Source: Nitrospira sp. (GTDB taxonomy: Bacteria; Nitrospirota; Thermodesulfovibrionia; UBA6902). Taken from it: 64,000 bases of DNA. The stretch spans positions 8,746 through 72,745 of the forward strand of contig JADHUV010000009.1 in the NCBI GenBank assembly GCA_016784355.1, given 5' to 3'. Positions 2,637 through 43,462 of this stretch are shown here, piece after piece. The translations under genes were made by a program, and so were the position numbers. Under the pieces are notes generated by a model. That model saw only the letters and a program-made list of their open reading frames with translations, was not told where the DNA came from and ran no database searches. The stretch's first letter is position 1. The number at the start of each line of letters is the position of its first letter.

Positions 2637-4121
2637 TTACAGGGATATGGGCATATTCCCTTTAAAAGAGATTTCTCCCATAAGGCAGCGCATTGCCGCC
2701 TGCTGGGCCTGCAGCGAAGAATCATAAGCCGCAATCAAGGTATCTGCCTCCATGAAATGTCTCAGTACATAAGGACTTCCAAATGATATGACAATTGATC
2801 TGCGGAAGGAACTCAATGCCAGCTTTATCATATCTGTATTCAGTGAACTGATCCCCGAGCTTCCGTGCCAGGCGGCAATATTTGTAAATATCCCTACAAG
2901 CAGGATTCCGTCGTGATCAATATTTGATGTCTCATCGGTGAACTTAAGAGGGCATCCAAAGAGCTCTTTAAGCGTTGATATGTCAGGGGAGGTGTCATCT
3001 CCGCAGACCATAAGGCTGATTTTATGAGTATCTTTAAGCGGGACGATATCTTTTGAATTATGTATTAGTGTTATTGAGCGCTCATACAGCTCTGTGAATA
3101 TTGCTTTTGCATCAGTTTCTAAGCGGAAAGCTGTCTGGTCAAGAGGTGTTTTTTTGACATACTCATTGATTCTTGCAGCAGCCTTATCGATTTTTGATTC
3201 GGTCAGTGCGCCGCTTGCGACATCGGCTGCGAGTTCTGAGGCGGCGGTGTCAGCATCATCCGGATGTAATATTATGTCGGCCCCGGCATTAATGCACCCC
3301 GTGGCGGCAGATCCGTATTCCCTGAGGGCATGCATATTAAGGGCGTCTGTCAGGATAAGGCCCGGAAAACCGAGTTCCTCTTTAAGAAGTCCCGTTACTA
3401 TTCGCTTTGAGAGGGAGGCAGGCAGGTGGTCAATAGCGGGAATGCTCAGGTGTCCGAGCATAATGCTGCTTATGCCTGCCTGAATCGCGGCCGCAAATGG
3501 GACGAGATCCTGTGCCCTCAGGTCATTTAATGATTTTGATATCAGCGGCAAATCTATGTGTGAGTCTGTGTCTGTATCTCCGTGGCCGGGAAAGTGTTTT
3601 GCACAACTGATGAGTCCGGCACCTTCAATGGCGCTTATATAAATTTTGCCGAGACCTGCCACGGTTGCAGGGTTATCAGAAAATGCCCGTGTGCAAATAA
3701 TAGGGTTGTCAGGGTTGCTATTGATATCAAGTACAGGGATAAGAGGCATGTTTATGCCTGCCTGTGCTGCTTCCTGGGCAACCATAGTAATTGCCTTTTC
3801 CAGTTGTCTTATTTCAGAGATATTATTTAGATCTGTGGCGGCTGCGACGGCCATTTGTGTGGGGAAATGCAGGGCGCCTTCTAAGTGCTGTCCGACCCCA
3901 CGCTCTATGTCGCATGCAATGACAAGGCGTTCCTTTGCCAGGGTCTGAAGTTCCGCAATGCAGGCTGTAACTTCATCCTTTGTGCCGCCGAAGATGATAA
4001 ACCCGCCGATACCTTTTTCTACGAGCAGGGCAAGGCTCTCACGGTATTTGAGTTTCCCGAGTTCATAGCCATTAAGTCTGCTTATGATAAGGCGGTAATA
4101 TTTTTTATCTGCAGGGGGCAT
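2637..4121 (-). CDS. nagZ: Glycoside hydrolase family 3 beta-N-acetylhexosaminidase (NagZ-like, with an extra C-terminal domain)
   Basis: GH3 signature KHFPGHGDTDTDSH and the LILTDALNM block. At 494 aa it is longer than a minimal NagZ. Confidence 0.75.
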   Translation of the reverse strand: MPPADKKYYRLIISRLNGYELGKLKYRESLALLVEKGIGGFIIFGGTKDEVTACIAELQTLAKERLVIACDIERGVGQHLEGALHFPTQMAVAAATDLNNISEIRQLEKAITMVAQEAAQAGINMPLIPVLDINSNPDNPIICTRAFSDNPATVAGLGKIYISAIEGAGLISCAKHFPGHGDTDTDSHIDLPLISKSLNDLRAQDLVPFAAAIQAGISSIMLGHLSIPAIDHLPASLSKRIVTGLLKEELGFPGLILTDALNMHALREYGSAATGCINAGADIILHPDDADTAASELAADVASGALTESKIDKAAARINEYVKKTPLDQTAFRLETDAKAIFTELYERSITLIHNSKDIVPLKDTHKISLMVCGDDTSPDISTLKELFGCPLKFTDETSNIDHDGILLVGIFTNIAAWHGSSGISSLNTDMIKLALSSFRRSIVISFGSPYVLRHFMEADTLIAAYDSSLQAQQAAMRCLMGEISFKGNMPISL

Positions 4122-27439: not shown

Positions 27440-28041
27440 AATCTTATGTAGTTGCCCTCTCAGGTGCGAGCGGAGCTGTACTGGGAGTACGGCTTGTAAG
27501 GGAGCTTCTGGCCTCTGGATGCAAGGTATATATCTGTCTTTCCAGGCAGGCCTTTTTTATTCTAAATACCGAGGCTGGAATTGATTGGGCCGGTTCTTCA
27601 ACTGCTGAGAGCGAAGAGAAAATAAGGGCGCATTTTGGTTCGGATAATATCTATTATTTCAGTGACACTGATCTGGCAGCTCCTTTTTCAAGCGGGTCCT
27701 TTATTACAGGCGGGATGTTCGTAGTTCCATGTTCAATGAAGACCCTTTCCGGAATTGCTCATGGTTACGCCAGTAACTTAATTGAAAGGGCGGCGGATGT
27801 GACTATTAAGGAGGGACGCAAACTCATCATTGCCCCTCGTGAGATGCCGTTTAGTGCCATACATCTGGAAAATATGCTTAAGCTTGCTCGGATTGGAGTC
27901 ACTGTTGCCCCGCCTGTTCCGGCCTTTTATCAGGGTCCTGAGCATATTGAAGACATCATTAGTTTTATAGTGGGAAAGCTGCTTGACAGTGCAGGAGTAA
28001 AAAATAATTTGTTTAAGCGCTGGAATCAGGAAAAGCGTTGA
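27436..28041 (+). CDS. ubiX: Flavin prenyltransferase UbiX
   Basis: N-terminal SGASGAVLGVRL, PCSMKTLSGIAHG and the RERKLIL-type block (KEGRKLIIAPREMP). Confidence 0.85.
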   Translation: MKSYVVALSGASGAVLGVRLVRELLASGCKVYICLSRQAFFILNTEAGIDWAGSSTAESEEKIRAHFGSDNIYYFSDTDLAAPFSSGSFITGGMFVVPCSMKTLSGIAHGYASNLIERAADVTIKEGRKLIIAPREMPFSAIHLENMLKLARIGVTVAPPVPAFYQGPEHIEDIISFIVGKLLDSAGVKNNLFKRWNQEKR

Positions 28042-29107
28042 TGGTGCTGCCAGGTCCGTCCTGGTGTGAGTCATAAATCTCCCTGAACGTCTCTGAAAGT
28101 TCCGTAAATGCTGAAAGTATATCCGGATCAAAGTGTTTCGGCATTGTTCTGCCGTCACCCTCAATCAGGATTTTACAAACGTCTTCATGGGTTATTGCTG
28201 ATTTGTACGGTCTCATGCATCTCAGTGCATCATATTGATCGCATATAATAACAATTCTTCCTTCCAGCGGGATATCACTGCCTTTAAGTCCATTAGGGTA
28301 TCCGCTACCGTCCCACCTTTCGTGATGCTGCAGCGCTATGGTGGATGCCATTTGAAGGATAGGGTGAGGCGAGTCGGCCAGGATCTTGTGGCCTATGGTT
28401 GTATGAGATTTCATTATATCAAACTCTTCTCTGGTAAAGGTCCCGGGCTTTAAGAGTATATTGTCCGGTATTCCTATCTTTCCTATATCGTGCAGGGTGC
28501 TTGCATAGGTAATGGCATCAATGAAATCAACGTTTTTATTCAGGTACTCGGATATCTTGTTTGCATAGAGCCCAATTCTGGATATGTGGGAGCCCGTCTC
28601 AACGTCTCTGAACTCTGCTACCGAGGTCAGTCTTCTTATTACTTCTCTGCTGAGATTGAAGATTTCTCTTGTCTGTTTTCTGACGGTCTCTTCAAGGCGC
28701 TGTTTATAGTCCTGCTCTACCTGCAGGAGTTCGCAGTATCTGCGGGCCTTTTCCACGGTGTCTATCAGATATTCAGGATTGTAGGGCTTTGTGATAAAAT
28801 CAAACGCCCCCTTTTTGATAGCTGCGATTGCCACATCAAGTTCGGCATATCCGGTCATGAGTATAATCGGCATTGCCGGTAAAATGGCATGAACCTTTTC
28901 AAGCAGTTGAATGCCGGACATCCCCGGCATCTTTATATCAGTAAGAATAAGCCTGGTATCAAGAGTGAGAGCCTTTTCCACCGCATCCGGCCCGTTGTTG
29001 CAGGGAATTACATTATAACCGTACTCTCTTAGCAGTGCCGCCGCCGTCTCCAGTACATAGGGGTCATCATCTACGACTATGATAGTGCCTTCAATCTGAA
29101 CGGTCAT
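28013..29107 (-). CDS. Response regulator with an HD-GYP phosphodiesterase output domain
   Basis: REC domain (IVVDDDP ... LTDIKMPGMSG ... KP). HD-GYP motifs HDIGK and HHERWDGSGYP. The 3' end overlaps the convergent ubiX by 29 nt. Confidence 0.85.
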   Translation of the reverse strand: MTVQIEGTIIVVDDDPYVLETAAALLREYGYNVIPCNNGPDAVEKALTLDTRLILTDIKMPGMSGIQLLEKVHAILPAMPIILMTGYAELDVAIAAIKKGAFDFITKPYNPEYLIDTVEKARRYCELLQVEQDYKQRLEETVRKQTREIFNLSREVIRRLTSVAEFRDVETGSHISRIGLYANKISEYLNKNVDFIDAITYASTLHDIGKIGIPDNILLKPGTFTREEFDIMKSHTTIGHKILADSPHPILQMASTIALQHHERWDGSGYPNGLKGSDIPLEGRIVIICDQYDALRCMRPYKSAITHEDVCKILIEGDGRTMPKHFDPDILSAFTELSETFREIYDSHQDGPGSTINAFPDSSA

Positions 29108-32100
29108 TTAACTGAGCACCTCTCTGATTTTGCGAACGAGCGTATATGGAGAAACCGGTTTAGATATGAAATTATGATCGTCTTCAAGAATGCCTTTTGC
29201 ATGTATCATGGCCTCTGTATAGCCGCTTGTAAATATGGCCTTAATAGCCGGTGAGTGTTTTTTAATTTCATCATAGGCATCTTTACCGCTTTTCTTGGGC
29301 ATGACAACATCGAGCAGCAATAGATTTATAATATCGCTGTGTTCTTTGAACTTGTCAATGGCATCCTGCCCGTTAACCGCTTCAATGACGGTAAACCCGA
29401 ACTCTTGCAGTATTGCTTTTTGGGCAACTCTGACATTTTTATCATCTTCCGCCAGCAGTATTGTCTCGCTGCCCTGCAGGTTGTTCATTGAAGAGAGTTC
29501 TGTAGCAATCTCAGACTTTTCCTGCATAAGAGGGATATATATTGTAAATAATGCCCCTTTTCCAGGCGAACTGTTTACATCAATATAGCCTTTATGCTGT
29601 TTAATTATACCATAAGACATTGCCAGTCCCAAACCGGTCCCTGTTCCTGAGGGTTTGGTTGTGAAAAAGGGTTCAAAGATCTTCGAGATATTTTCTTTTT
29701 TAATTCCTTTGCCTGTATCTTTGATTGTTATAAGTGCATATTCTCCTGATTTGCATACTGTGTCTGAATGTTCATAGGTTGCCTCGATTTTGTGTCGTTT
29801 TGTTTCGAGAGTTATGGTTCCGCCTTCCGGCATTGCATCTCTGGAATTGGAGGCCATATTGATAAGGATCTGTTCTATCTGTCCGCTGTCACCGAGCACC
29901 GTAAGGGGTAACATGGATATATTCGTAATGATATCGATGTCTTCCCCTATGAGTCTGGGCAGCAGTTTTGCTGTCCTGCTGAGCAACTCATTTAGATCAA
30001 GAGGCTTAAGGGAAAGTGTTTGATCTCTGCTGAAGATAAGAAGTCCCTGGGTCAGTGAAGCACCACGCTCTGTCATTGCCAGAATCTGATTAACATGGTA
30101 TAGCAATGGATCGTCCTGGTTAAGCTTCATGCGGATAAGGTTGCCATATCCTATTATAGCGGTCAGCAGGTTATTGAAATCGTGGGCGATGCCCCCTGCA
30201 AGTTGTCCGACTGCTTCCATCTTTTGAATGTGACGAAGCTGGTCCTCAAGCTTTTTATGCTCGGATATGTCCTCTATCAGGGCAAAGCTGTATTTAAGTT
30301 TATTTGCCGCATTGCGGACGGCCGTGACAGAAAGTTTTGCCCATAGAATGCTACCGTCTTTTCTTATATAACGTTTTTCCAGCTTATAGCTATCCTGTTT
30401 TCCATCAAGCATATCTTTTAATGCAACAATATTTTCATCTCTGTCTTCGGGGTGTGTTATGGCGGCGAAATTTGTCTGCAGCTCTCCCTCGTCATAACCC
30501 AGCATATTATGTAAAGCCGGATTTAATTCGATCAGGGTGCCATCCGGACTTGTTGTACACATACCTACAGGCGAGGACCTGAAAATAGTACTGAACCTTT
30601 CTTCTGCTGCCTGTGCCAGTTCACGGTCGCTGATATCGCTTACGATGCACATAATCACATGGCGCTGGTTAATTTCCATTATGCGCATATTGATTTCTAC
30701 GGGAAATACAGCCCCTGTCTTTCTTCTTTGGTGCAGGCCAATAATTGGTGTATCGCGATTTTTCTTCAGAGATTCCCTGAGTAATACGGAGAGCTGTTCT
30801 GAATCACTTAAAGGATGAAGTTGCATGAAAGGCATGCCCTTAAGCTCATCCTCGGAATAAGTGCTCATCTTAGAGGCCTTGCGGTTGCAGTCTATAATGA
30901 TCATTGTATTATCGTCTAACAGGTATACGGCATCATTTGATTCTTCAAATAATAGGCGGTATTTATTTTCTGACTCTTCCAGGAGTTTAATAGTCTGAAG
31001 CCTGTCTATCTCTGACTCGGCACGGTGTGAGAGCAGCTTGAAAAGAGATCTCGCCATCTGTTCATCTTTCATCGGCTTATCATCCATGACGGCAAGGATG
31101 CCTGTAATCTGACCGGAATTATTATATAGTCGGGTTCCTATGTAACTTTCTACCTCCATGTCAAAAAGGAGATAGTCTCCTGGAAATAACTGCTGCACAT
31201 TCTCAGGAAAAAAACAAAGAGACTCTTTCAATACCTTTTCGCAGGGGGTGTCTGCGAGCTTGTACTCAAAATTATCAATTATGCTGCCGCGCGCATATAC
31301 CGCGATAGTGCGTACTGTATCCGGTCTCTCGGGAACTATATTGCCAATGAGGGCATAGCGGGTATCCAGAGTTTCAGCTATAAATGTTGTCATGGAGTGG
31401 AAAAGCTGCTCACCTGTTTTTGTTGATATATGTTCCGCGACATGCCGCAATATGTCTTCGGCCTTTTTCCGTTCGGTGATATCTCTGATAATGCCCAGTA
31501 AATATTTTTTGCGGTTCAGTTCAATAAGTGAGTTGTGTATATCCGCATAAAAGATGCTGCCGTCTTTTCTTTTAAACGGAATATCCCGGGCCGCGAAGAT
31601 TTCATTTCTGGCCTGCTTCTCAAATTGCTCCAGTACAAACGGCAAGTCATCAGCCGGGTGAATATCATGTATTTTCAGGTTCAGGAGTTCATGCATACTG
31701 TAACCAAGCATATGAAGCATTTCTGTGTTGCAGGTATGGAATTTTTTCGTATTTATGTCGACAGCCAGTATCCCGTCCATTGCATTGTCAAAGATGGCCC
31801 TGAACTTGCCTTCTGAGTCGCGAAGTTCCATCTCTGATGCCTTCTGCCGGGATGTATCTTCTATAGTGCCTACATGAGTTCTGCTGCCAGGTGTCTCCCC
31901 CTGGAGTGTAATTGCACGTGCATGAATCCATTTGATCTCTCCCCCAGGGGTAACCACCCTTCCTGTATGGGAAAACTCTTCTTTGCTACTCAGGTATGCA
32001 CTCCATGCAGCCAGAGCATGCGGCCGGTCATTGGGATGGAAGGAATTGCACCAGCCGTTTTGGGTAATCTCCTGGAGGCTGAGTCCCGATATTTTCTGCC

Positions 32101-33076
32101 ACAGCCTGTTGGCATATATAGTATTGCCGTCCTGGTCTGCCAGGAATATTCCAATGGGCGCAGCCTCACTCAGCATCCTGAATTGTGCTTCACTTTTAAT
32201 CAGCTGCTGCTCTATCTGCTGGCGCTCAGTAATATCTCTGATAATGCCGATATTGCCGATCGCATTACCTTGTTCATTTAAGAGTTTCAGTGCATACATC
32301 TCACCGATAAAAATTTCCGAGTTTTTGCGTCTTAGCCTGACCTCTATGATCTCGCCCTTATGGTTTTCGTTTATATCAAAAACGGTATCGCCAGCACTGG
32401 CATAACTGTGGTCATCGGCATAAATTATTCTGGCGCTTTTCCCTAAAATATCATTTGCAGAATATCCGAAAACGTCAAGAAGTGCTGGTTCATTTACATT
32501 CACAATTATCCTGTCTTTGTCAGAAACTATTATTACGTCCCTGAAACTCCTGAACAAATTTTCGCCTAACTGCTCGCTTGCTGAAAGACTATTGTGTAGT
32601 GTCTTGTCCGTCTTATCAGGTGCAGCGGCATGAAGTGCCGGATCTTTTTCATTGGATTGTTCAGGTGGAGTTACCGCTTCAGGGCTATGTGGTGAGGTAA
32701 GGGTTGTATCATGCTCTGCCATTACTTCATCTAAAAGGGTCAGCAGTTGGTCCTCTGAGACCGGTTTAATTATAAAACGGGAAGCACCGAGAGAAAGTGC
32801 GAGAAGTTCATTTTTTGAATCTGTATAGGCAGCTGTATAAAAAATAAATGGAATGCCCCGGAGCTGTGTGTTAGACTTGAATTTCTGACAGAGCCTGAAA
32901 CCGTCAAGCTCCGGCAAAAGAATATCCGATATAATCATGTCAGGTTGTGATGCCTTGGCAGACTTAAAAGCCTCATCTCCGCTGGAGGTTTCGGTTACCT
33001 GATGGCCGCCTTTTTTTAGTCTGGCCTTTAGTTTTGATCTGGAGGTTGTGTTTGCATCTGATATTAATATGTGCAC
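29108..33076 (-). CDS. Hybrid sensor histidine kinase: N-terminal REC, multiple PAS domains, a GAF-like region, HisKA/HATPase and a C-terminal REC
   Basis: H-box GGIAHDFNNLLTAI. N/G boxes (NSRDAM, DTGKGI, GTGLGL). PAS-type repeats throughout. REC domains at both termini. The stop abuts the ATG of the HD-GYP regulator (TAAATG). Confidence 0.85.
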   Translation of the reverse strand: MHILISDANTTSRSKLKARLKKGGHQVTETSSGDEAFKSAKASQPDMIISDILLPELDGFRLCQKFKSNTQLRGIPFIFYTAAYTDSKNELLALSLGASRFIIKPVSEDQLLTLLDEVMAEHDTTLTSPHSPEAVTPPEQSNEKDPALHAAAPDKTDKTLHNSLSASEQLGENLFRSFRDVIIVSDKDRIIVNVNEPALLDVFGYSANDILGKSARIIYADDHSYASAGDTVFDINENHKGEIIEVRLRRKNSEIFIGEMYALKLLNEQGNAIGNIGIIRDITERQQIEQQLIKSEAQFRMLSEAAPIGIFLADQDGNTIYANRLWQKISGLSLQEITQNGWCNSFHPNDRPHALAAWSAYLSSKEEFSHTGRVVTPGGEIKWIHARAITLQGETPGSRTHVGTIEDTSRQKASEMELRDSEGKFRAIFDNAMDGILAVDINTKKFHTCNTEMLHMLGYSMHELLNLKIHDIHPADDLPFVLEQFEKQARNEIFAARDIPFKRKDGSIFYADIHNSLIELNRKKYLLGIIRDITERKKAEDILRHVAEHISTKTGEQLFHSMTTFIAETLDTRYALIGNIVPERPDTVRTIAVYARGSIIDNFEYKLADTPCEKVLKESLCFFPENVQQLFPGDYLLFDMEVESYIGTRLYNNSGQITGILAVMDDKPMKDEQMARSLFKLLSHRAESEIDRLQTIKLLEESENKYRLLFEESNDAVYLLDDNTMIIIDCNRKASKMSTYSEDELKGMPFMQLHPLSDSEQLSVLLRESLKKNRDTPIIGLHQRRKTGAVFPVEINMRIMEINQRHVIMCIVSDISDRELAQAAEERFSTIFRSSPVGMCTTSPDGTLIELNPALHNMLGYDEGELQTNFAAITHPEDRDENIVALKDMLDGKQDSYKLEKRYIRKDGSILWAKLSVTAVRNAANKLKYSFALIEDISEHKKLEDQLRHIQKMEAVGQLAGGIAHDFNNLLTAIIGYGNLIRMKLNQDDPLLYHVNQILAMTERGASLTQGLLIFSRDQTLSLKPLDLNELLSRTAKLLPRLIGEDIDIITNISMLPLTVLGDSGQIEQILINMASNSRDAMPEGGTITLETKRHKIEATYEHSDTVCKSGEYALITIKDTGKGIKKENISKIFEPFFTTKPSGTGTGLGLAMSYGIIKQHKGYIDVNSSPGKGALFTIYIPLMQEKSEIATELSSMNNLQGSETILLAEDDKNVRVAQKAILQEFGFTVIEAVNGQDAIDKFKEHSDIINLLLLDVVMPKKSGKDAYDEIKKHSPAIKAIFTSGYTEAMIHAKGILEDDHNFISKPVSPYTLVRKIREVLS

Positions 33077-33136
33077 GTTTTTAAATATCCTTTATCGACC
33101 CCTGTTAACACAAATAAGGCAAAAGTCTGTTGAATA

Positions 33137-35548
33137 TCAGCTTTGTTCATGCATTACCATTTTTATCATTTCCAGCAGGGCACTGGGTGATACCGGTTTT
33201 GAGAGAAAGTGCAGTCCGTTGTCTAGCAGCTCTTTTTTCTTAATATTATCTGCTGTATAGCCGCTTGTGAAGATAATTTTTATATGAGGATCCAAGGTCT
33301 TGATTTCTTCATATGCCTCTTTGCCATTTTTAACCGGCATTATTACATCAAATAAAAGAAGCGTTATATTGTCCCTGTTAATCATGAATTTAGCGATAGC
33401 ATCCTGTCCATCTGCTGCCTCGATAACAGTGTAGCCGTACTCTTCCAGGATGAACTTTAAGGCCTCTCTAACTTCATCTTCATCCTCAGCAAGAAGTATT
33501 GTGCCGGTACCGTTGGGCGGGTCAGGCAATGTCTTTGTTTGTTCAATATGCTTAGGTTGTTTTGCTGCCGGGATCAGTATCCTGAAGGTAGTGCCGCCTT
33601 TAGGCTCGCTGTATACATTTATATAGCCCTTATGCTGTTTCATTATCCCGTATGCCATGGAAAGGCCGAGCCCTGTGCCCTGACCGACATCTTTTGTGGT
33701 AAAAAAAGGCTCAAATATTTTTTCTTTTGTGTCGGTGGTCATGCCGGAGCCTGTATCACTGACGGATATAAGGGCGTATTTTCCTTCCCTGCCGTATCCG
33801 TGAGTCTGTTTAAACATACTGTCAATAGTAAAGAGGGAGATTCCAATGGTAAAAGTTCCCCCGTCAGGCATGGCATCACGGGCATTGGAAGCAAGGTTGA
33901 TAAGTATATGCTCGATTTGACTGATATCAGCCATTACATAGAGTTCGTCTTCAGGGATCTGGATTTTCATCTCAATGTTTTCACCGAGCATTCTTTTTAG
34001 CAGTTTCTCCACTCCTGCCAGCAAAAGGCTGAGCGAGACAGGCTGTATATTCATGACCTGTTTTCTGCTGAATGCAAGAAGACTCTTTGTCAGTAATGCC
34101 CCGCGATCTGAAATTGTCAGTATCTGATTAATGTAGTGCATCATATTATCATTTTCTGGAAGTTTCATTCGCAGCAGGCTGCCGTAGCTTATAACAGCGG
34201 TCAGCAGGTTGTTGAAATCGTGGGCGATACCCCCTGCAAGCTGGCCGACCGCCTCAAGCTTTTGAGAGTGTTGAAGCTGCGTTTCCAGCTTATTCTGTAT
34301 TGTAATATCCTTTATATTGATCAAAGCTACTGCCTGCTGATCTATTTCTATCGTAACATAGCTAATATCTGCCTGGAATACAGTGCCGTCGTGTCTTATA
34401 ACAGAAATGTCATGAATTATTACGGGACTGCTATTGTCGCTTGCTGCACGCTCAGCTTCTATAAACTTAAGGTCCTCTGGTGTATGAATATCACTAAGCA
34501 TCAGTGATGTAAGTTCTTCCGTACTGTAGCCAAGCATCTCAGTAAGAGTACGGTTACCGGTTATGGTCTTATTTATCTCAGGATTGATCAGCAGTATTCC
34601 GTCTGCTGCATTATCAAAGATTGCCCGGAATCTGGCCTCTGACTCTTTTAAATCTCTGTTTGCCTTTTTGTACTGGGTCGTGTCATGTCCGATAGCTATG
34701 GTGCCTATTATCCTGGAGTTATTGTCGGTCATGGGACTGATATTCCATATAATGTGCCGTGGCTCTTCCGAGGGGGTGAAGACCGGGCATTCAAAGTCCT
34801 TAACTTCCGCCCCGGATATAGCTTCATCGACCTTAGCTGTAAATGCCTTTGAGTATTCGCCTTTAAGGCATAAATTGAAAAAATTCTTTCCGAGGACATC
34901 TTCTTTTTTTCTGCCGAATATTTTTTCCGCCTCTTGATTGAACTCGGTAATCGTCTGGTCCGTTGATATGCAGACTATGGAGCAGGCAGCATGCTCAACC
35001 AGGAGCCGGAAGCGTGCTTCGCTGGCCTGCAGTTCGCTTTCTTTTTGCTTCAGGGCGCGGTGCTCTTTCTCAAGCTCTTTCAGCTTTTTATCAAGTTTGT
35101 TTGAGAGGCGATTATCGTACATTTCCATCAATACGGGTGTTGGGTTACTTGGATGTTCCGGGACCTTCAGCGAATTGTTTTTAAACGTTAGAATAATCTC
35201 ATTTATTATCTTGAGAAACTGGTCATTTTCAAGCGGCTTGATTAAAAATTTTGATGCCCCGAGTGAAAGTGCAAGCTGCTCGTCTTTAGGATCAGTATAG
35301 GTGGCTGTATAGAAGACGAAGGGCACTTTGCTGAGAGTGCTGTCCTGCTTGGCCATGCGGCAAAATGTGAAGCCGTCCATTTCAGGCATGAGTATGTCTG
35401 ATATAATCATTTCCGGAAGGAACTCTCTCGCTATCTTCAGGGCTTCTGCACCATTTGCTGCACCCCTGACTTCATAGCCGGCAGATTCCAGATTTTTTTT
35501 TAGTATAATCCTGGAGTCTTCAGTGTCTTCCGCGATAAGAATTCTCAT
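33137..35548 (-). CDS. Hybrid sensor histidine kinase: N-terminal REC, a coiled coil, two PAS domains, HisKA/HATPase and a C-terminal REC (paralogue of the downstream kinase)
   Basis: Same H-box GGIAHDFNNLLTAV, N/G boxes and REC domains at both ends. The N-terminal REC shares the unusual block FYTA.YTD...E.LALSLGAS.F.IKP with the neighbouring kinase. Confidence 0.85.
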   Translation of the reverse strand: MRILIAEDTEDSRIILKKNLESAGYEVRGAANGAEALKIAREFLPEMIISDILMPEMDGFTFCRMAKQDSTLSKVPFVFYTATYTDPKDEQLALSLGASKFLIKPLENDQFLKIINEIILTFKNNSLKVPEHPSNPTPVLMEMYDNRLSNKLDKKLKELEKEHRALKQKESELQASEARFRLLVEHAACSIVCISTDQTITEFNQEAEKIFGRKKEDVLGKNFFNLCLKGEYSKAFTAKVDEAISGAEVKDFECPVFTPSEEPRHIIWNISPMTDNNSRIIGTIAIGHDTTQYKKANRDLKESEARFRAIFDNAADGILLINPEINKTITGNRTLTEMLGYSTEELTSLMLSDIHTPEDLKFIEAERAASDNSSPVIIHDISVIRHDGTVFQADISYVTIEIDQQAVALINIKDITIQNKLETQLQHSQKLEAVGQLAGGIAHDFNNLLTAVISYGSLLRMKLPENDNMMHYINQILTISDRGALLTKSLLAFSRKQVMNIQPVSLSLLLAGVEKLLKRMLGENIEMKIQIPEDELYVMADISQIEHILINLASNARDAMPDGGTFTIGISLFTIDSMFKQTHGYGREGKYALISVSDTGSGMTTDTKEKIFEPFFTTKDVGQGTGLGLSMAYGIMKQHKGYINVYSEPKGGTTFRILIPAAKQPKHIEQTKTLPDPPNGTGTILLAEDEDEVREALKFILEEYGYTVIEAADGQDAIAKFMINRDNITLLLFDVIMPVKNGKEAYEEIKTLDPHIKIIFTSGYTADNIKKKELLDNGLHFLSKPVSPSALLEMIKMVMHEQS

Positions 35549-38440: not shown

Positions 38441-39166
38441 CTATTTAATTCGATCTACCCATAACGCAGTTGCGCCTGAAATCGCTGCCGGCATTGCTAT
38501 GAAGTTGATAACTGGTATAATCGCCAGAATTGTCACGGCAGCACCAAATCCCATAACCAGACTTTTTCGCGATCGCAGTTGATTCCTGCCCTCGGAAAAG
38601 TATATCCGGTTGTTCTCCATGGGATATGAGGTGAACTCAAGCGCAAGCATCCAGGATGTAAATAGAAACCACACAGCAGGAAAGAAAAGGCTCGCAAACG
38701 GCAGGAGCAGAAGTAAGAGTACTGCCAGGCTGCGTAATACAAAGTATCCCAGCTTCTTTGACTCATTGATAATGGAAGGGATAATGGTGCTTAAAAAACC
38801 GATATTATCTGAATCCGAGTGAGTCCTGCCTTCAAGTATAGCCTCTGTTTTTTCTGCCAGGAGACTGTTAAATGGTGAGGCAATAAGATTGGCGAGCAGC
38901 AGAAATGTGAAAAATATCACGACCATTATCAGTGTATAGAATAGGATCCATAGAAAAATTGCAGTGATGTCTGTCCACCAGCTGTTTTGAGGCAGGAGCC
39001 AGTTTAGAAAAACCTCATACTGGATATAACCTGTATAGATTGCAGCGGTGAAGAGTATGGCATTGATAATAAGCGGTATGTAAACATAGGGTCGCAGTTC
39101 GGGTCTTGAAATAAGTTTAATTCCCTTTAATCCATAGCGAAACCCTGCAAAAAAATCAGTTAACAT
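38441..39166 (-). CDS. EI24/CysZ-like integral membrane protein
   Basis: About 240 aa with a 4-TM topology and overall resemblance to CysZ/EI24 proteins. No diagnostic motif verified. Confidence 0.45.
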   Translation of the reverse strand: MLTDFFAGFRYGLKGIKLISRPELRPYVYIPLIINAILFTAAIYTGYIQYEVFLNWLLPQNSWWTDITAIFLWILFYTLIMVVIFFTFLLLANLIASPFNSLLAEKTEAILEGRTHSDSDNIGFLSTIIPSIINESKKLGYFVLRSLAVLLLLLLPFASLFFPAVWFLFTSWMLALEFTSYPMENNRIYFSEGRNQLRSRKSLVMGFGAAVTILAIIPVINFIAMPAAISGATALWVDRIK

Positions 39167-39182
39167 GAGAGGCGAAGGCTGT

Positions 39183-39506
39183 TTATTGGAAGTGTCCCAG
39201 GCATTTCATATAAGACTCAGGCGGGTTGATTATCGAGAGTCCCACACTTGTAGTAAAGCCGTGCGGAGGTGTTACATAGGACCACTTGATTTTGCATTCA
39301 AGAAGTTGTGTTTCTCCGGAAGGAAGAACAAATTTAAGGCTGGCCTGTGTGTCACTGGAAAAAGTAATAGGTTTTTTTGCCGGGGCAGTGATGAGGTATA
39401 TTCCCTCGTCAGAAAGATTTTCAATCGAGCTTGCAAAGCTTTCCTCTCCTACCTTCAGTCTGGCATCGAGGTTAACTATTTTTCTTTTGGCTTTTCTGGT
39501 GTCCAT
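39183..39506 (-). CDS. PilZ-domain protein (c-di-GMP receptor type)
   Basis: RxxxR (RKAKR) and N-x-S-x-x-G (NLSDEG) motifs at the canonical spacing. Confidence 0.7.
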   Translation of the reverse strand: MDTRKAKRKIVNLDARLKVGEESFASSIENLSDEGIYLITAPAKKPITFSSDTQASLKFVLPSGETQLLECKIKWSYVTPPHGFTTSVGLSIINPPESYMKCLGHFQ

Positions 39507-39564
39507 TTTTATATTCTAACATATTATTTTTACTATGAAGCAAGGGTGGGAAGGAATAGGGGGG

Positions 39565-40449
39565 TTAGGGGTTAGGGAAGTATTTTTTGCAGTTTTGTAA
39601 TTCCTGGTGCAGGGTTCCCTGGAGAAAACCTTCGGTGATGGCTTTTGTACTGTTTAAAGAGACATCGGCGGCCCGGGGGGCGGGGGTGTTTATATCTCTT
39701 TGGAGGCACTTGTGAATTTGGACCTCCGGCATATGGAAGATATCCTTTATGAGTAAGCCGAAGTCGTATCTTGAGATTCTCTCAGCGCCTCCGAGATGAA
39801 ATATGCCTCCATTAAATTCGAGAGCCAGCAAGAGTCCATCGGCCGCCCTGTTAACGCATAGCGGGGTTCGAAACTCATCTGTAAATATTTTCAGGACTTT
39901 GCCCTGCCTCATTGCATTAACCATAGATAAAAGTGCTGAAGATCCATGGGGCGAGGGAGGGCCGAACATTAGCGGCATTCTGCAGACCACGGACTTTGGA
40001 TATGCTCTGAGTACTTCCTGTTCCGCCCTGACTTTCTGTTCTCCATACACGCTAAGCGGATCTGTGGGGGCATCTTCAGAATATGGCGCACTGCGGCCAT
40101 TAAATACCAGATCGGTAGATGTGAAAATATAGGGAATATCTTTTTCGCAGCATAGTTTTGCAAGCATAACCGGTACTGAAGCATTGATCTCTGCGGTCTC
40201 GTGTACATACTGCTGGCAGTAATCAGGGTTAGTGGCAGCAGCGGTGTGAATAACAGCATCCGGGCGGATAGTGTGGAATAAAGAGTTAAGTTCACGGTAG
40301 TTGCACAGGTTTATATTGGAGATATGTGCTCCGGGAATATCTATGTCATTGGAACCTGCAAGGCCGAATACATCCCATTTGTCAATGGCAGACCGGATTG
40401 TGTGCCATCCCAGAAATCCGCTGGCACCTGTGATAAGGAGCTTTTTCAT
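39565..40449 (-). CDS. NAD(P)-dependent sugar-nucleotide epimerase/reductase (RfbD/extended SDR-like)
   Basis: N-terminal TGASGFLGWH Rossmann motif and the YGEQK catalytic Y-x3-K. Confidence 0.7.
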   Translation of the reverse strand: MKKLLITGASGFLGWHTIRSAIDKWDVFGLAGSNDIDIPGAHISNINLCNYRELNSLFHTIRPDAVIHTAAATNPDYCQQYVHETAEINASVPVMLAKLCCEKDIPYIFTSTDLVFNGRSAPYSEDAPTDPLSVYGEQKVRAEQEVLRAYPKSVVCRMPLMFGPPSPHGSSALLSMVNAMRQGKVLKIFTDEFRTPLCVNRAADGLLLALEFNGGIFHLGGAERISRYDFGLLIKDIFHMPEVQIHKCLQRDINTPAPRAADVSLNSTKAITEGFLQGTLHQELQNCKKYFPNP

Positions 40450-40898: not shown

Positions 40899-41636
40899 GT
40901 GATGGAAAATGGTACAATACTGTCCGGGTTGATGAGTCATGCCCAATCGTTTAAATTTCTTAATGGAGAGTGTCTTGAAATGTTAAGTCAGATCCCGATG
41001 GATAAAATTGAATACGTACTTTTGGACATGGACGGCACCCTGCTGGATCTATATTTTGATGATTATTTCTGGGGTCATCTGGTGCCGGAAAAATATGCGG
41101 AAAAACATGAGATAACATTTGGTGCTGCAAAGGAATATCTTTACAGTACATATAAGTCTCATGAAAAAACCCTGAACTGGTGTGATATTGATTTCTGGTC
41201 ACGGGAGCTTAAACTGGATATCCCGGCCTTGAAAGAGCAGATAAGGCATTTAATAGAGGTGCATCCGAATGTAATAGATTTTCTTAAACTTATGCGCAAG
41301 AGAAAGAAGAAAATCTATATACTGACGAATGCACATTATAAGACAGTAAAAATAAAGTTTAGAAAGACGCAAATAGGGGAGTACTTTGATGAAGTGCTTT
41401 GCTCTTTTAATGTAGGTCACCCCAAGGAAGACCTGCAGTTTTGGGAAAAGGCACAGAAAAAGCTAGGGTTTGGCAAGGCAAATTCGGTCTTTATAGATGA
41501 TACTGAGGACGTGCTGAAGACCGCCAGAGAGTATGGTATGAAATATCTTTTATTTAAGTCCCGGGCCAGTTCAAAACTCAAGCCCAAGGAGACGACAGAG
41601 TTTTTGACAATCAATAATTTCAGCGAACTTATGTAG
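40899..41636 (+). CDS. HAD-superfamily hydrolase (nucleotidase-like)
   Basis: HAD motif I LLDMDGTLLD, motif II LTNA and motif IV FIDDTEDV. Confidence 0.7.
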   Translation: MMENGTILSGLMSHAQSFKFLNGECLEMLSQIPMDKIEYVLLDMDGTLLDLYFDDYFWGHLVPEKYAEKHEITFGAAKEYLYSTYKSHEKTLNWCDIDFWSRELKLDIPALKEQIRHLIEVHPNVIDFLKLMRKRKKKIYILTNAHYKTVKIKFRKTQIGEYFDEVLCSFNVGHPKEDLQFWEKAQKKLGFGKANSVFIDDTEDVLKTAREYGMKYLLFKSRASSKLKPKETTEFLTINNFSELM

Positions 41637-41668
41637 TCTTTAAGTTGCCGCTCAGGCATACTGGCTTT

Positions 41669-41696
41669 AAAACCCGGCTTTTACGGCCGGGTTTTT
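41669..41696. terminator. Bidirectional hairpin terminator
   Basis: AACCCGGC-ttttacg-GCCGGGTT with an A-run before and T5 after. Lies between convergent genes. Confidence 0.55.
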
Positions 41697-41722
41697 GCCT
41701 TATTAATTATATAGTGGGGGCG

Positions 41723-42006
41723 TTAAACTTTTTTCATGAGGAGAAAGGTTGCACCTTCTTCTGTCTTTATCGCCTTAAATACTTCACAGGACATACATGA
41801 TGCCTGCTTCATAGCAAAATCGCCCTGGACCTTGCCTCCACAGAATGTGCCTGCAACTGCCCAGCATATTCTGCCGCCGTTTTTGCCGCTGTTTGCACCA
41901 TTGCACGAGGTGTCTGTTGCCGCAGGGCACACCCCTAACTCCGCTGTTTTTTACCGCCGGCTTCTCGCCCGCAATCCTTTGATTCCCAACAATTTTTTTT
42001 TGCCAT
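41723..42006 (-). pseudogene. Two-CW-type cysteine-rich small protein gene interrupted by a 1-nt frame shift at an A6 run
   Basis: The N-terminal frame reads MAKKNCWESKDCGREAGGKK then stops (TAG at 41935-37). The C-terminal frame reads TAELGVCPAATDTSCNGANSGKNGGRICWAVAGTFCGGKVQG...; the ORF track lists its 69-aa part, which starts at the GTG at 41932. SD GGAGGG at 42013-18. One extra A in the run at 41947-52 would fuse both halves. Confidence 0.6.
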
Positions 42007-42027
42007 TTCCATCCCTCCAATTTAATT

Positions 42028-42044
42028 TATATATATATATATAT
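42028..42044. repeat. (TA)8 dinucleotide microsatellite just upstream of the two-CW gene
   Basis: TATATATATATATATAT read directly, 22-38 nt upstream of the ATG at 42006. Confidence 0.9.
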
Positions 42045-42131
42045 CGGCAAAAAAATGAGAAACATTAGGCCGTTGAGTAGAAAGATTAAAATAAGATTAA
42101 AGACGTTGTGAAAAAAGGGGGGGCATAAGAA

Positions 42132-42170
42132 ATAACAGCAGGGCAATCGATATAGAAGCCCTGCTGTTAT
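42132..42170 (-). terminator. Long hairpin immediately downstream of rho (possible terminator)
   Basis: 13-bp stem ATAACAGCAGGGC / GCCCTGCTGTTAT. On the minus strand it is followed by a C7T6 tract rather than an immediate U-run. Confidence 0.4.
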
Positions 42171-42181
42171 ATTTAAATAGG

Positions 42182-43462
42182 CTATTTATTCATTCGGTCA
42201 AGAAATTCCTTGTTGTTTTTTGTTCCAGTGATCTTGTCCAGAAGGAATTCCATGCTCTCGATTGTGCTGAGTGAGTGCAGGACCTTTCTGAGTATCCACA
42301 TTCTCTGAAGCATCTTCTTCTCTACAAGCAGCTCTTCTTTACGTGTGCCTGAGGAATTGATATTTATAGTCGGGAAGATGCGCTTGTCAACGAGTTTTCT
42401 ATCGAGGTGCAGTTCCATGTTTCCGGTTCCCTTGAACTCTTCAAATATGACATCGTCCATACGGCTGCCTGTATCAACAAGGGCTGTGGCCATGATAGTA
42501 AGACTGCCGCCTTCCTCGATATTACGGGCAGTTCCAAAGAATCTTTTTGGTTTCTGAAGTGCATTTGAGTCCAGTCCGCCTGAAAGTACTTTACCACTTG
42601 CGGGAATTACAGCATTGTAGGCCCTGGCAAGTCTAGTGATTGAGTCCAGCAAAATTATAACATTCTTACCAGTCTCAACCAGACGTTTTGAACGCTCTAC
42701 AACCATTTCCGCAACCTGCAGATGTCTCTGAGGCGGTTCATCAAAGGTAGAGCTTATTATCTCTGCATTTACCTGTCTGCTCCAGTCAGTTACCTCTTCC
42801 GGTCTCTCATCAATCAGAAGAATTATCAGGTGCGCATCCGGGTGGTTTGTTGTTATTGCTTTTGCGATTGACTGCAGCAGCATGGTTTTACCGGTTCTTG
42901 GTGCCGCAACGATCATCCCACGCTGGCCCATACCGATCGGACTTACAAGTCCCATGATCCTTGTGCAGTACTCATCCTTGTCATATTCAAGGTCTATGGG
43001 TTCTGTAGGATAGTATGGAGTAAGGTTGTCAAATAGTGGTCTCTCAATGCTCTCGTCCGGCGGTTCATGATTGACTGCCTCAACTTTTAGAAGGGCGAAG
43101 TATCTTTCACTTTCCTTAGGAGGTCTGATCTGGCCTGTTACAAGGTCTCCGGTGCGAAGTGTAAACCGTCTTATTTGAGAGGGAGAGACATATATATCAT
43201 CCGGCCCCGGCAGATAACTGTAATCAGGTGAACGGAGAAATCCAAAGCCGTCCGGCAGGATTTCTAACACGCCTTCCCCGAAAATAAGCCCCGTCTTTTC
43301 TGTCTGCGCCTGTAAAATAGCAAACATCAGTTCCTGTTTTCGCAGGCCTCGGGCACCCTCTACGTTGAGTTCCTTGGCCAGTTTGGCCAACTCATCCGGA
43401 GTTTTATCTTTAAGTTCCGAAATGTTCATACCATCTCCTTGCTTCTTACGTTTGTTCACCAT
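42182..43462 (-). CDS. rho: Transcription termination factor Rho
   Basis: RNA-binding N-terminal domain (GFGFLR), Walker [18 protein letters not shown] and the C-terminal [18 protein letters not shown] block. The likely true start is the internal MNISELK. Confidence 0.95.

Follow-up and report, generated by a model that had tools for sequence, protein, structure and literature searches.

A one-base frameshift shared by six assemblies and a probable recent pseudogene in the two-CW domain family of a Nitrospirota bacterium

The locus and its reading frames

The stretch of DNA analysed here (64 kb, hereafter the window) carries a small Cys-rich gene that is divided between two reading frames and lies between rho (42182-43462, minus strand) and a convergent HAD hydrolase gene, which ends at 41636 (Table 1). 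The first part, ORF-a, starts with the ATG at 42006-42004 on the minus strand, and its frame 0 reads MAKKNCWESKDCGREAGGKKQRS before it is ended by the TAG at 41937-41935. The -1 frame contains a TAA at 41953-41951, is then open from 41950 to the TAA at 41725-41723, and reads KTAELGVCPAAT...LLMKKV; the stretch from 41950 to this stop, which constitutes ORF-b, runs through KTAELGVCPAATDTSCNGANSGKNGGRICWAVAGTFCGGKVQGDFAMKQASCMSCEVFKAIKTEEGATFLLMKKV. A subset of ORF-b that begins with a GTG encodes 69 aa (41723-41932). An initial annotation of this DNA had described a gene split in two frames, a switch point confined to 41938-41950, and A6, A9, (TA)8 and A6G7 tracts in and around the gene. The split is present as described, the switch window is bounded by the stop codons of both frames, and all of the tracts occur at the positions originally given.

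Table 1. Features of the two-CW locus, in coordinates of the window.
Feature	Position	Strand	Method or remark
ORF-a: ATG, 23 codons and TAG; first CW motif, C6 and C12	41935..42006	-	open reading frame
ORF-b: -1 frame, 75 sense codons and TAA; second CW motif, five invariant Cys	41723..41950	-	
Shine-Dalgarno sequence GGAGGG, 6 nt upstream of ATG	42013..42018	-	
In-frame A9 run, codons 2-5 (A-K-K-N)	41993..42001	-	
A6 run (GGT AAA AAA CAG), one base short compared with all homologues	41947..41952	-	
Second A6 run, directly upstream of the stop	41729..41734	-	
Sigma-28 (FliA)-type -35-like element TAATGTTT (consensus TAAAGTTT), 2 mismatches	42060..42067	-	motif scan
Sigma-28-type -10-like element GCCGATAT (consensus GCCGATAA), separated by 11 nt from the -35-like element	42041..42048	-	motif scan
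(TA)8 microsatellite, lying between -10-like element and Shine-Dalgarno sequence	42028..42043	.	length varies, with 8, 9, 10 or at least 13 units
C7T6 tract, reading A6G7 on the plus strand, between rho terminator and promoter	42111..42123	-	
rho terminator hairpin, 13-bp perfect stem; upstream cassette boundary	42132..42170	-	inverted repeat search
Terminator hairpin with a perfect stem of 10 bp and a T-run on each strand	41669..41695	.	inverted repeat search

A second ATG at 42012 abuts the Shine-Dalgarno sequence, and its use is unlikely. The rho terminator hairpin directly follows the rho stop at 42182, and because the hairpin on the other side of the gene has T-runs on both strands, it is apparently shared by the two-CW cassette and the convergent HAD hydrolase gene. 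Runs of six are commonplace in the window, which has a G+C content of 44.8% and contains 38 A6 and 53 T6 runs. Apart from the A9 run, the window has only one other 9-mer run, and the (TA)8 tract is its longest dinucleotide repeat. No direct repeats were found flanking the cassette, around which only a weak inverted pair (22 nt, 73%) was detected, and tblastn revealed no paralogue of the two-CW gene within the 64 kb.

Identity of the fused product and its homologues

As the initial annotation had predicted, one extra A at 41947-41952 restores a single ORF, in which the two frames are joined into a 94-aa protein. According to the NCBIfam profile NF045718.1, 'two-CW domain', which describes a Cys-rich domain of approximately 80 aa and has a curated cut-off of 35 bits, this fused protein is a family member with a score of 101.3 bits over profile positions 1-79 of 80, and the family name given in the initial annotation was correct. 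ORF-a alone receives 22.6 bits (profile positions 1-18), which is under the cut-off, and the 69-aa GTG-started form of ORF-b receives 68.5 bits (profile positions 24-79), which is above it. Pfam gave no match for the fused protein or for either fragment, and no paper was found in the literature under the name 'two-CW domain'. The reconstituted protein contains the two C-W motifs (C6-W7 and C48-W49) and the eight Cys that had been counted previously, and seven of these Cys occupy positions that are invariant among 111 sequences of the family (C6, C12, C27, C48, C56, C71 and C74). Moreover, the fused protein aligns to its homologues without a gap over the junction (GGxKTxELGVCPAA), where the peptide of the fused reading is K/TAELGVCPAATDTSCNGANSGK, preceded by ...EAGGKK. 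An AlphaFold2 model of the fused protein, based on 111 sequences, is of low confidence (mean pLDDT 62.5, pTM 0.53), and its quality is insufficient for comparisons of folds. Members of the family are expected to be encoded by one uninterrupted ORF; in the window and in five other assemblies the ORF is interrupted by the one-base deficit, and the locus is a disrupted member.

A search of approximately 5.8 billion protein clusters yielded 932 homologues. The best matches, mainly from MAGs of Nitrospirota/Thermodesulfovibrionia, share 70-82% identity with the fused query over 96-99% of its length and are mostly 101-103 aa long; among the best 120 of the 932, lengths are mostly 91-126 aa. The initial annotation had allowed for the fused protein having no homologues, or for the homologues being two separate small ORFs. 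Many homologues exist when the fused protein is aligned to the databases, and they are single ORFs.

For comparisons at the DNA level, the homologous genes consisted of 84 two-CW genes in the 80 best loci from species-representative genomes. All of them read through in one frame at the codons equivalent to the shift site (shift in 0 of 84), where the homologues typically have GTA AAG ACA or GAA AAA ACA; an in-frame A6 is present at the equivalent spot in three of the 84 genes. In one homologue (L071), a TAA lies in frame at another place in the gene. In a DNA alignment with the closest homologues (L004, L009 and L094), the window shows a single-column gap, GGCGGTA-AAAAACAGCGG compared with GGTGGTGTAAAGACAGGAG.

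Promoter and TA tract

The sequence TAATGTTT-N11-GCCGATAT at 42067-42041 agrees at 14 of 16 positions with TAAAGTTT-N11-GCCGATAA, the sigma-28 consensus, of which the GCCGATAA -10 element was drawn from the literature (PMC12784957). No other match with three or fewer mismatches occurs in the window; however, this single match is not significant alone, because 0.57 matches are expected by chance. The family provides further evidence. A strict form of the motif, TAAAG-N13-16-CCGATA, occurs no more than 200 nt upstream of 22 of the 84 two-CW genes, with only three further matches elsewhere in 1.12 Mb of locus sequence, both strands included. A relaxed sigma-28-like motif is found upstream of 41 of 85 two-CW genes, and approximately nine paralogues carry a sigma-54-like GGCAT-N5-TTGCA in place of the sigma-28 type. 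In addition, the homologues carry GGAGG at the equivalent Shine-Dalgarno position. We read these elements as a predicted sigma-28-like promoter of the two-CW cassette. Inspection of the ORF list revealed no recognisable flagellar genes in the window.

The last bases of the -10-like element are the first TA units, and the tract runs from there toward the Shine-Dalgarno sequence. Because the tract lies downstream of the -10, a change in its length would alter the leader and not the -35/-10 spacing, if the sigma-28 reading is right. In our reading, the tract is probably a hypermutable microsatellite grown from GATATATAA, a sequence seen after the -10 in the homologue L040. Dinucleotide tracts upstream of the gene are not characteristic of the family; they occur in 4 of the 84 genes with only 4-5 units. 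Consensus scans for sigma-70 promoters and terminators returned nothing, whether the region carried (TA)8 or (TA)10. A reading of the TA tract as a sigma-70 spacer (TTGCCG...TATAAA) was dropped once the family-wide sigma-28 motif emerged.

The frameshift in six assemblies

The Rho protein of the window was found, exactly identical, on nine contigs. The two-CW locus itself is represented in six assemblies: the window, with 8 TA units; L001 (ENA ERZ24794648, 76 kb, 55x), L002 (Logan ERR13319469) and L003 (ENA ERZ24794656), with 10 units each; L084 (GenBank metagenome JACKQG01), which has 9 units and was found by a DNA pattern permitting 5-9 bases at the run; and L099 (Logan ERR13319652), in which the contig ends inside the tract after at least 13 units. 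The run lengths were compared over these assemblies. The A6 at the shift site and the A9 in codons 2-5 are constant in all six, and the C7T6 tract has an equal length in all five that cover 42111-42123; only (TA)n varies. Over 7281 aligned nt, the sole difference between the window and L001 is a 4-nt TA indel. The six assemblies represent very closely related populations with 100% identical flanks, and they are to be counted as independent sequencing and assembly events, not as evolutionary samples. Because their TA alleles differ (four alleles in six assemblies), they are separate sequence determinations and not copies of one another. Moreover, the contig names, which include SPAdes-style NODE contigs, Logan contigs and a GenBank metagenome record, suggest that the sequences come from more than one assembler.

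Miscalled homopolymers are a frequent artefact, and the initial annotation had listed a homopolymer sequencing error among its explanations. According to this explanation, the true genome would have A7 and an intact 94-aa gene, and it is consistent with the fact that one base restores the ORF of a gene that otherwise looks perfect. However, all six assemblies have A6, despite their four TA alleles, the use of more than one assembler and a coverage of 55x in one contig. Furthermore, long ORFs account for 92% of the window, and of its 48 A/T runs of at least 7, 34 are in frame inside ORFs of at least 150 aa, with A7, A8 and T9 among these in-frame runs. A recurrent error at one A6 run without errors at many longer runs is unlikely. 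We therefore disfavour a systematic sequencing or assembly error, which we regard as very improbable; the frameshift is real and is in the DNA itself in all six assemblies. Because an assembly shows the majority allele only, a minority A7 sub-population could be present. No gene has been called at the two-CW position in the other assemblies, and no record lists the 69-aa ORF among called genes.

Synteny and the question of phase variation

A rho or HAD hydrolase gene adjoins a two-CW gene at none of the 80 reference-genome loci. When synteny was anchored on Rho homologues instead, the four closest loci were L087, L088, L089 and L085. In L087 and L088, whose Rho and HAD proteins are 90% and 79% identical, respectively, to those of the window, the order of a 116-aa gene, cutA, rho and HAD is kept, and between the convergent rho and HAD genes there are only 35 nt, taken up by a hairpin, and no two-CW gene. 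In L089 (JACRQA01) and L085, other genes follow rho. No two-CW remnant was detected by tblastn in any of the four. The outcome of the conservation test at the rho locus is thus that the gene is absent, not that the shift is conserved. Because the rho loci of the relatives have no two-CW gene, the cassette of approximately 520 nt, from the promoter-like motif to the hairpin at 41669-41695, is lineage-specific. The relatives have several two-CW paralogues (at least three in JACRQA01, JACQXG01 and CBFDEG01, and at least four in PIVU01); therefore, it is plausible that one extra copy can be lost without a fitness cost.

Slipped-strand phase variation was another explanation of the initial annotation. 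The window may be viewed as a contingency (phase-variable) locus in which slippage between A6 and A7, together with (TA)n, would switch or tune expression, with the sampled populations all being OFF. Several observations agree with this view: the (TA)n tract is hypervariable among otherwise identical sequences, the gene has three A runs (A9, A6 and A6) and needs one added A for an open frame, and the ORF and its signals are undecayed. However, neither the A6 nor the more slippage-prone A9 varies in length in the six assemblies, and the protein search found no ON allele. Among the 5.8 billion clusters, the search returned no protein that exceeds 82% identity to the fused reading, and only OFF alleles were found; therefore, an intact A7 allele has not been assembled anywhere indexed. 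The run of six A is also short for a homopolymer switch, given that known homopolymer switches mostly use 8 or more units. Moreover, the rarity and shortness of upstream dinucleotide tracts in the family and the position of the TA tract downstream of the -10 of a sigma-28-like promoter, if this is what it is, argue against a switch. Phase variation at the A6 run is thus unsupported by any length variation or intact allele, hypervariability being a property of the upstream (TA)n, and we consider a contingency locus unlikely. A more elaborate proposal combines two tiers of slippage control, in which (TA)n, placed in the initially transcribed part of a sigma-28-type promoter, would tune output and slippage on the A6 run, at the level of DNA, RNA or the ribosome, would gate a Cys-rich two-CW sensor of the motility regulon. 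This proposal seems to us quite unlikely; if it were true, it would describe a stochastic switch in a free-living Nitrospirota bacterium, of a kind known mainly from host-adapted pathogens.

State of decay and signals for recoding

We defined 58 conserved columns at a threshold of at least 90% among 110 homologues. The fused reading matches 55 of these (94.8%), compared with a family mean of 97.0% and a minimum of 83.9%, and 42 of the 44 conserved columns downstream of the shift are intact. The fused reading departs from the conserved residues at Q66M and V69A and in lacking the Tyr of the GQxY tail at the C-terminus. The gene ends with LLMKKV and a stop at the A6 run at 41729-41734, which is 8-9 codons short of the homologues of 102-103 aa; a few natural family members are equally short. 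A second frameshift at this C-terminal A6 was considered as the cause of the lost GQxY and rejected, for the alternative frames, KKFNAPTI and KKSLTPPLYN, each followed by a stop, are unlike the tail. The Shine-Dalgarno sequence and the start codon are intact, as are the promoter-like motif and the terminator. Because the ORF and its expression signals are undecayed, either the lesion arose recently or the gene remains in use to some degree.

The initial annotation had also suggested -1 frameshifting on U-AAA-AAA-C. In this reading, a useful full-length protein would be made by -1 slippage of tRNA-Lys on that sequence or from transcripts with a polymerase-added A, and the indel would be 'saved'; 'Savior' indel correction is a recognised category in the account of PMC5009743. 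Slippage anywhere in 41938-41950 would give the exact consensus sequence, the A-site tRNA-Lys, as read from the sequence, re-pairs perfectly in the -1 frame, and the ORF after the shift is undecayed. However, the zero frame is GGU AAA AAA CAG, and the heptamer U-AAA-AAA is not of the canonical X-XXY-YYZ form because the P-site tRNA would re-pair on UAA. There is also no sign of the stimulatory structure that a programmed site would have 5-9 nt downstream: the 101 nt from the run fold with -28.6 kcal/mol and are no stabler than shuffles (mean -30.2 kcal/mol, z = +0.50). A search against Rfam found nothing over threshold and returned sub-threshold noise on the terminator hairpins only. Selective pressure against transcriptional slippage can be seen at approximately nine A/T in a large fraction of the genomes of bacteria (PMC1088944), and compared with this threshold the run of six A is short. 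Slippage at the A9 run could not restore the frame, since the TAA at 41953-41951 closes the -1 frame before the A6 is reached. Finally, the shift occurs in none of the 84 homologous genes, and the relatives have no orthologue at this locus. Programmed recoding is thus unsupported, and we judge it improbable; low-level unprogrammed slippage on the A6 run would yield the exact consensus protein in trace amounts at most.

The two parts of the gene could also be translated separately. Re-initiation at the GTG at 41932 after the TAG would produce the 23-aa peptide and a 69-aa fragment beginning (M)CPAATDTSCNGANSGK, acting jointly or separately. The GTG lies 2 nt past the stop, with a GGAG at 41942-41939, 6 nt upstream of it, and the 69-aa ORF exceeds the family cut-off on its own. 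However, the fragment is without the first CW motif and two of the invariant Cys, and none of the 84 homologous genes is organised in this manner. Moreover, GGAG and GTG are expected by descent because they belong to the codons of the conserved E-L-G-V. A functional split gene is, in our opinion, highly improbable.

Discussion

Of the four explanations offered in the initial annotation, a recent pseudogene fits best. We consider it probable that the deletion of one base is genuine and fixed in the population, and that it recently inactivated an extra paralogue, specific to this lineage, of the multi-copy two-CW family. In this reading, the cassette is complete, with a sigma-28-like promoter, a Shine-Dalgarno sequence, an ORF and a terminator for a small stand-alone two-CW domain protein, and it is an extra copy in a Nitrospirota (Thermodesulfovibrionia-like) bacterium, flanked by the convergent genes for Rho and the HAD hydrolase. 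Its frame is broken by the loss of one base at codons 19-21. Replication slippage from A7 to A6 is the most economical path, although an identical sequence would result if a base other than A had been lost, for instance from ATA AAA ACA. With normal decoding, a 23-residue peptide would be produced and the two-CW domain would not be made. The (TA)n tract after the -10-like element would be an ordinary hypermutable microsatellite drifting in length. We infer the loss of function, its recency and the slippage mechanism, and two observations may be held against a pseudogene. The near-zero decay after the shift and the intact signals would also be expected of a gene that is still used. In addition, the shift lies exactly on the A run of lysine codons, where slippage would give the family-consensus GGKKTAELG.

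The frameshift itself is an ordinary event, and the family context is more useful. Neighbours were counted within 2.5 kb of two-CW genes, with a Pfam scan of one representative protein each. REC-GerE response regulators were found at 38 loci, CheW at 19, FlgE and FlgD at 16 each, and FliK at 15; methyl-accepting chemotaxis-like proteins, which were judged from their sequence only, were found at 6. Stand-alone two-CW genes are multi-copy in Thermodesulfovibrionia. In Desulfobacterota, the two-CW domain forms the N-terminus of cNMP-binding Ser/Thr kinases, of PP2C phosphatases and of a DUF4118-Usp membrane protein. Taken together, the sigma-28-type promoters, the flagellar and chemotaxis neighbours and the kinase and phosphatase fusions suggest that the two-CW domain is a Cys-rich sensing module, perhaps for metal or redox, that is tied to motility and chemotaxis signalling. 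These comparative data constitute a first functional lead for the domain. In annotations, the appropriate label for the locus is that of a two-CW domain pseudogene with a frameshift, and not that of two hypothetical ORFs or an assembly error. The TA tract also offers a clean example of a microsatellite that varies among otherwise identical environmental genomes.

Comparison with known systems

Similar to the other members of NF045718, the copy in the window matches the whole profile, with both CW motifs and the seven invariant Cys, and it shares with many stand-alone members the same kind of sigma-28-like promoter and Shine-Dalgarno sequence. However, its ORF is interrupted and ends 8-9 residues early without the GQxY tail. 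Moreover, it lies between rho and a HAD hydrolase gene rather than in the flagellar, chemotaxis and response-regulator neighbourhoods in which the family members occur.

Contingency loci are known with (TA)n in the hifA/hifB promoter of Haemophilus influenzae and with poly-A or poly-G tracts in genes of Neisseria and Campylobacter. The window resembles them in having a promoter-region (TA)n that varies among otherwise identical genomes and homopolymers inside the ORF. However, its intragenic runs are constant, its alleles are OFF only, and its A6 is shorter than the typical tracts. In loci of the hifA/hifB type, the TA repeat is situated between -35 and -10, whereas the TA tract of the window would follow the -10-like element, if the sigma-28 reading is right.

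Programmed -1 frameshifting, as in dnaX and on the A-AAA-AAG of the IS3 family, likewise proceeds in the -1 direction on a lysine AAA run, and here too it would give a consensus product. The window differs in its non-canonical heptamer, in having no stimulatory structure and in a shift that is shared by no homologue. Among the transcriptional slippage sites described in PMC1088944 and PMC5009743, Thermus dnaX has 9 A and Shigella mxiE has 9 T, in comparison with the six A of the window.

The locus corresponds to ordinary slippage pseudogenes in its one-base change at an A run, which is population-fixed, affects one member of a multi-copy family and is accompanied by no compensating signals. 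It differs from them in having no further lesions and intact expression signals. Because of this preservation, the deletion may be very recent, or some residual use of the gene is possible.

The two-CW gene and the rho-HAD interval

In the closest syntenic relative (L087 and L088, found through Rho), one 35-nt hairpin is common to the convergent rho and HAD hydrolase genes (positions 2452-2487 in L087 and 2407-2442 in L088), whereas the two genes are separated in the window by 545 nt that contain two separate hairpins with the two-CW cassette between them. This difference argues that the cassette was either inserted into the window lineage or retained by that lineage only.

The start of the two-CW gene is enclosed by a 10-nt perfect inverted repeat, the arms of which flank the TA tract, the Shine-Dalgarno sequence and the start codon. 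In a transcript reading through from rho, the arms could pair and thereby mask the Shine-Dalgarno sequence; the repeat may instead be fortuitous, with a T7 run that happens to complement the A9 run of codons 2-5. In addition, the contig from the same strain in Logan accession ERR13319652 (L099) stops within the TA tract, at least 13 TA units in (its last 30 nt, approximately window 42028-42053). The TA tract of this contig is a fourth allele, longer than the others, and the contig end may reflect either heterogeneity of TA length inside the sample or a tract exceeding the assembler's k-mer.

Elsewhere in the window, two opposite-strand ORFs overlap, and the 136-aa ORF is probably spurious because it is the 107-aa ORF that other assemblies call. 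Furthermore, the three large ORFs appear to form a putative multi-component phosphorelay cluster.

Positions of features in the window
Feature	Positions	Strand	Remarks
Three large ORFs in a row (803, 1322, 364 aa)	28013-35548	-	Starts resemble response-regulator receiver domains
136-aa ORF	39165-39575	+	Overlaps 107-aa minus-strand ORF
107-aa ORF	39183-39506	-	Called in other assemblies; weak PilZ match
rho-HAD interval	41636-42182
Inverted repeat arms	42046-42055 / 41995-42004	-	TTTTTTTGCC / GGCAAAAAAA
Sigma-28/FliA-type promoter motif	42041-42067

The two-CW family in reference genomes

In Desulfobacterota and relatives (L059, L065, L068, L074, L076 and L079), larger proteins carry the two-CW domain at their N-terminus, namely cNMP-binding Ser/Thr protein kinases (~540 aa), PP2C phosphatases (~330 aa) and one DUF4118-Usp membrane protein. 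The kinase gene lies next to the phosphatase gene in L068 and L079. The homologue in L071 carries an in-frame TAA within the conserved CGRE motif (R*SGG, about 4001-4040), and it may be another disrupted member of the family or else an assembly error in that MAG.

For every two-CW gene in the 80 reference-genome loci (L004-L083), the motif scan covered 200 nt of upstream sequence. The sigma-28/FliA-type motif TAAAG-N13-16-CCGATA precedes 22 of the 84 genes, and only three matches lie outside these upstream regions in 1.12 Mb of locus sequence; under a relaxed pattern, the motif is found upstream of 41/85 genes. In L006, L008, L010, L022, L031, L032, L038 and L067, it is replaced by a sigma-54-like GGCA(T/C)-N5-TTGCA at about -40 to -51 relative to the start codon, so that the two-CW paralogues of one genome apparently depend on different sigma factors.

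The two-CW genes of these loci have recurrent neighbours at distances of up to 2.5 kb: REC-GerE response regulators (38 loci), CheW (19), FlgE and FlgD (16 each) and FliK (15), one representative of each group having been checked against Pfam; MCP-like proteins, a group assigned from sequence only, occur at six loci. Judged by promoter motifs and gene neighbours, the uncharacterised two-CW family appears to belong to a regulon of late flagellar or chemotaxis genes.
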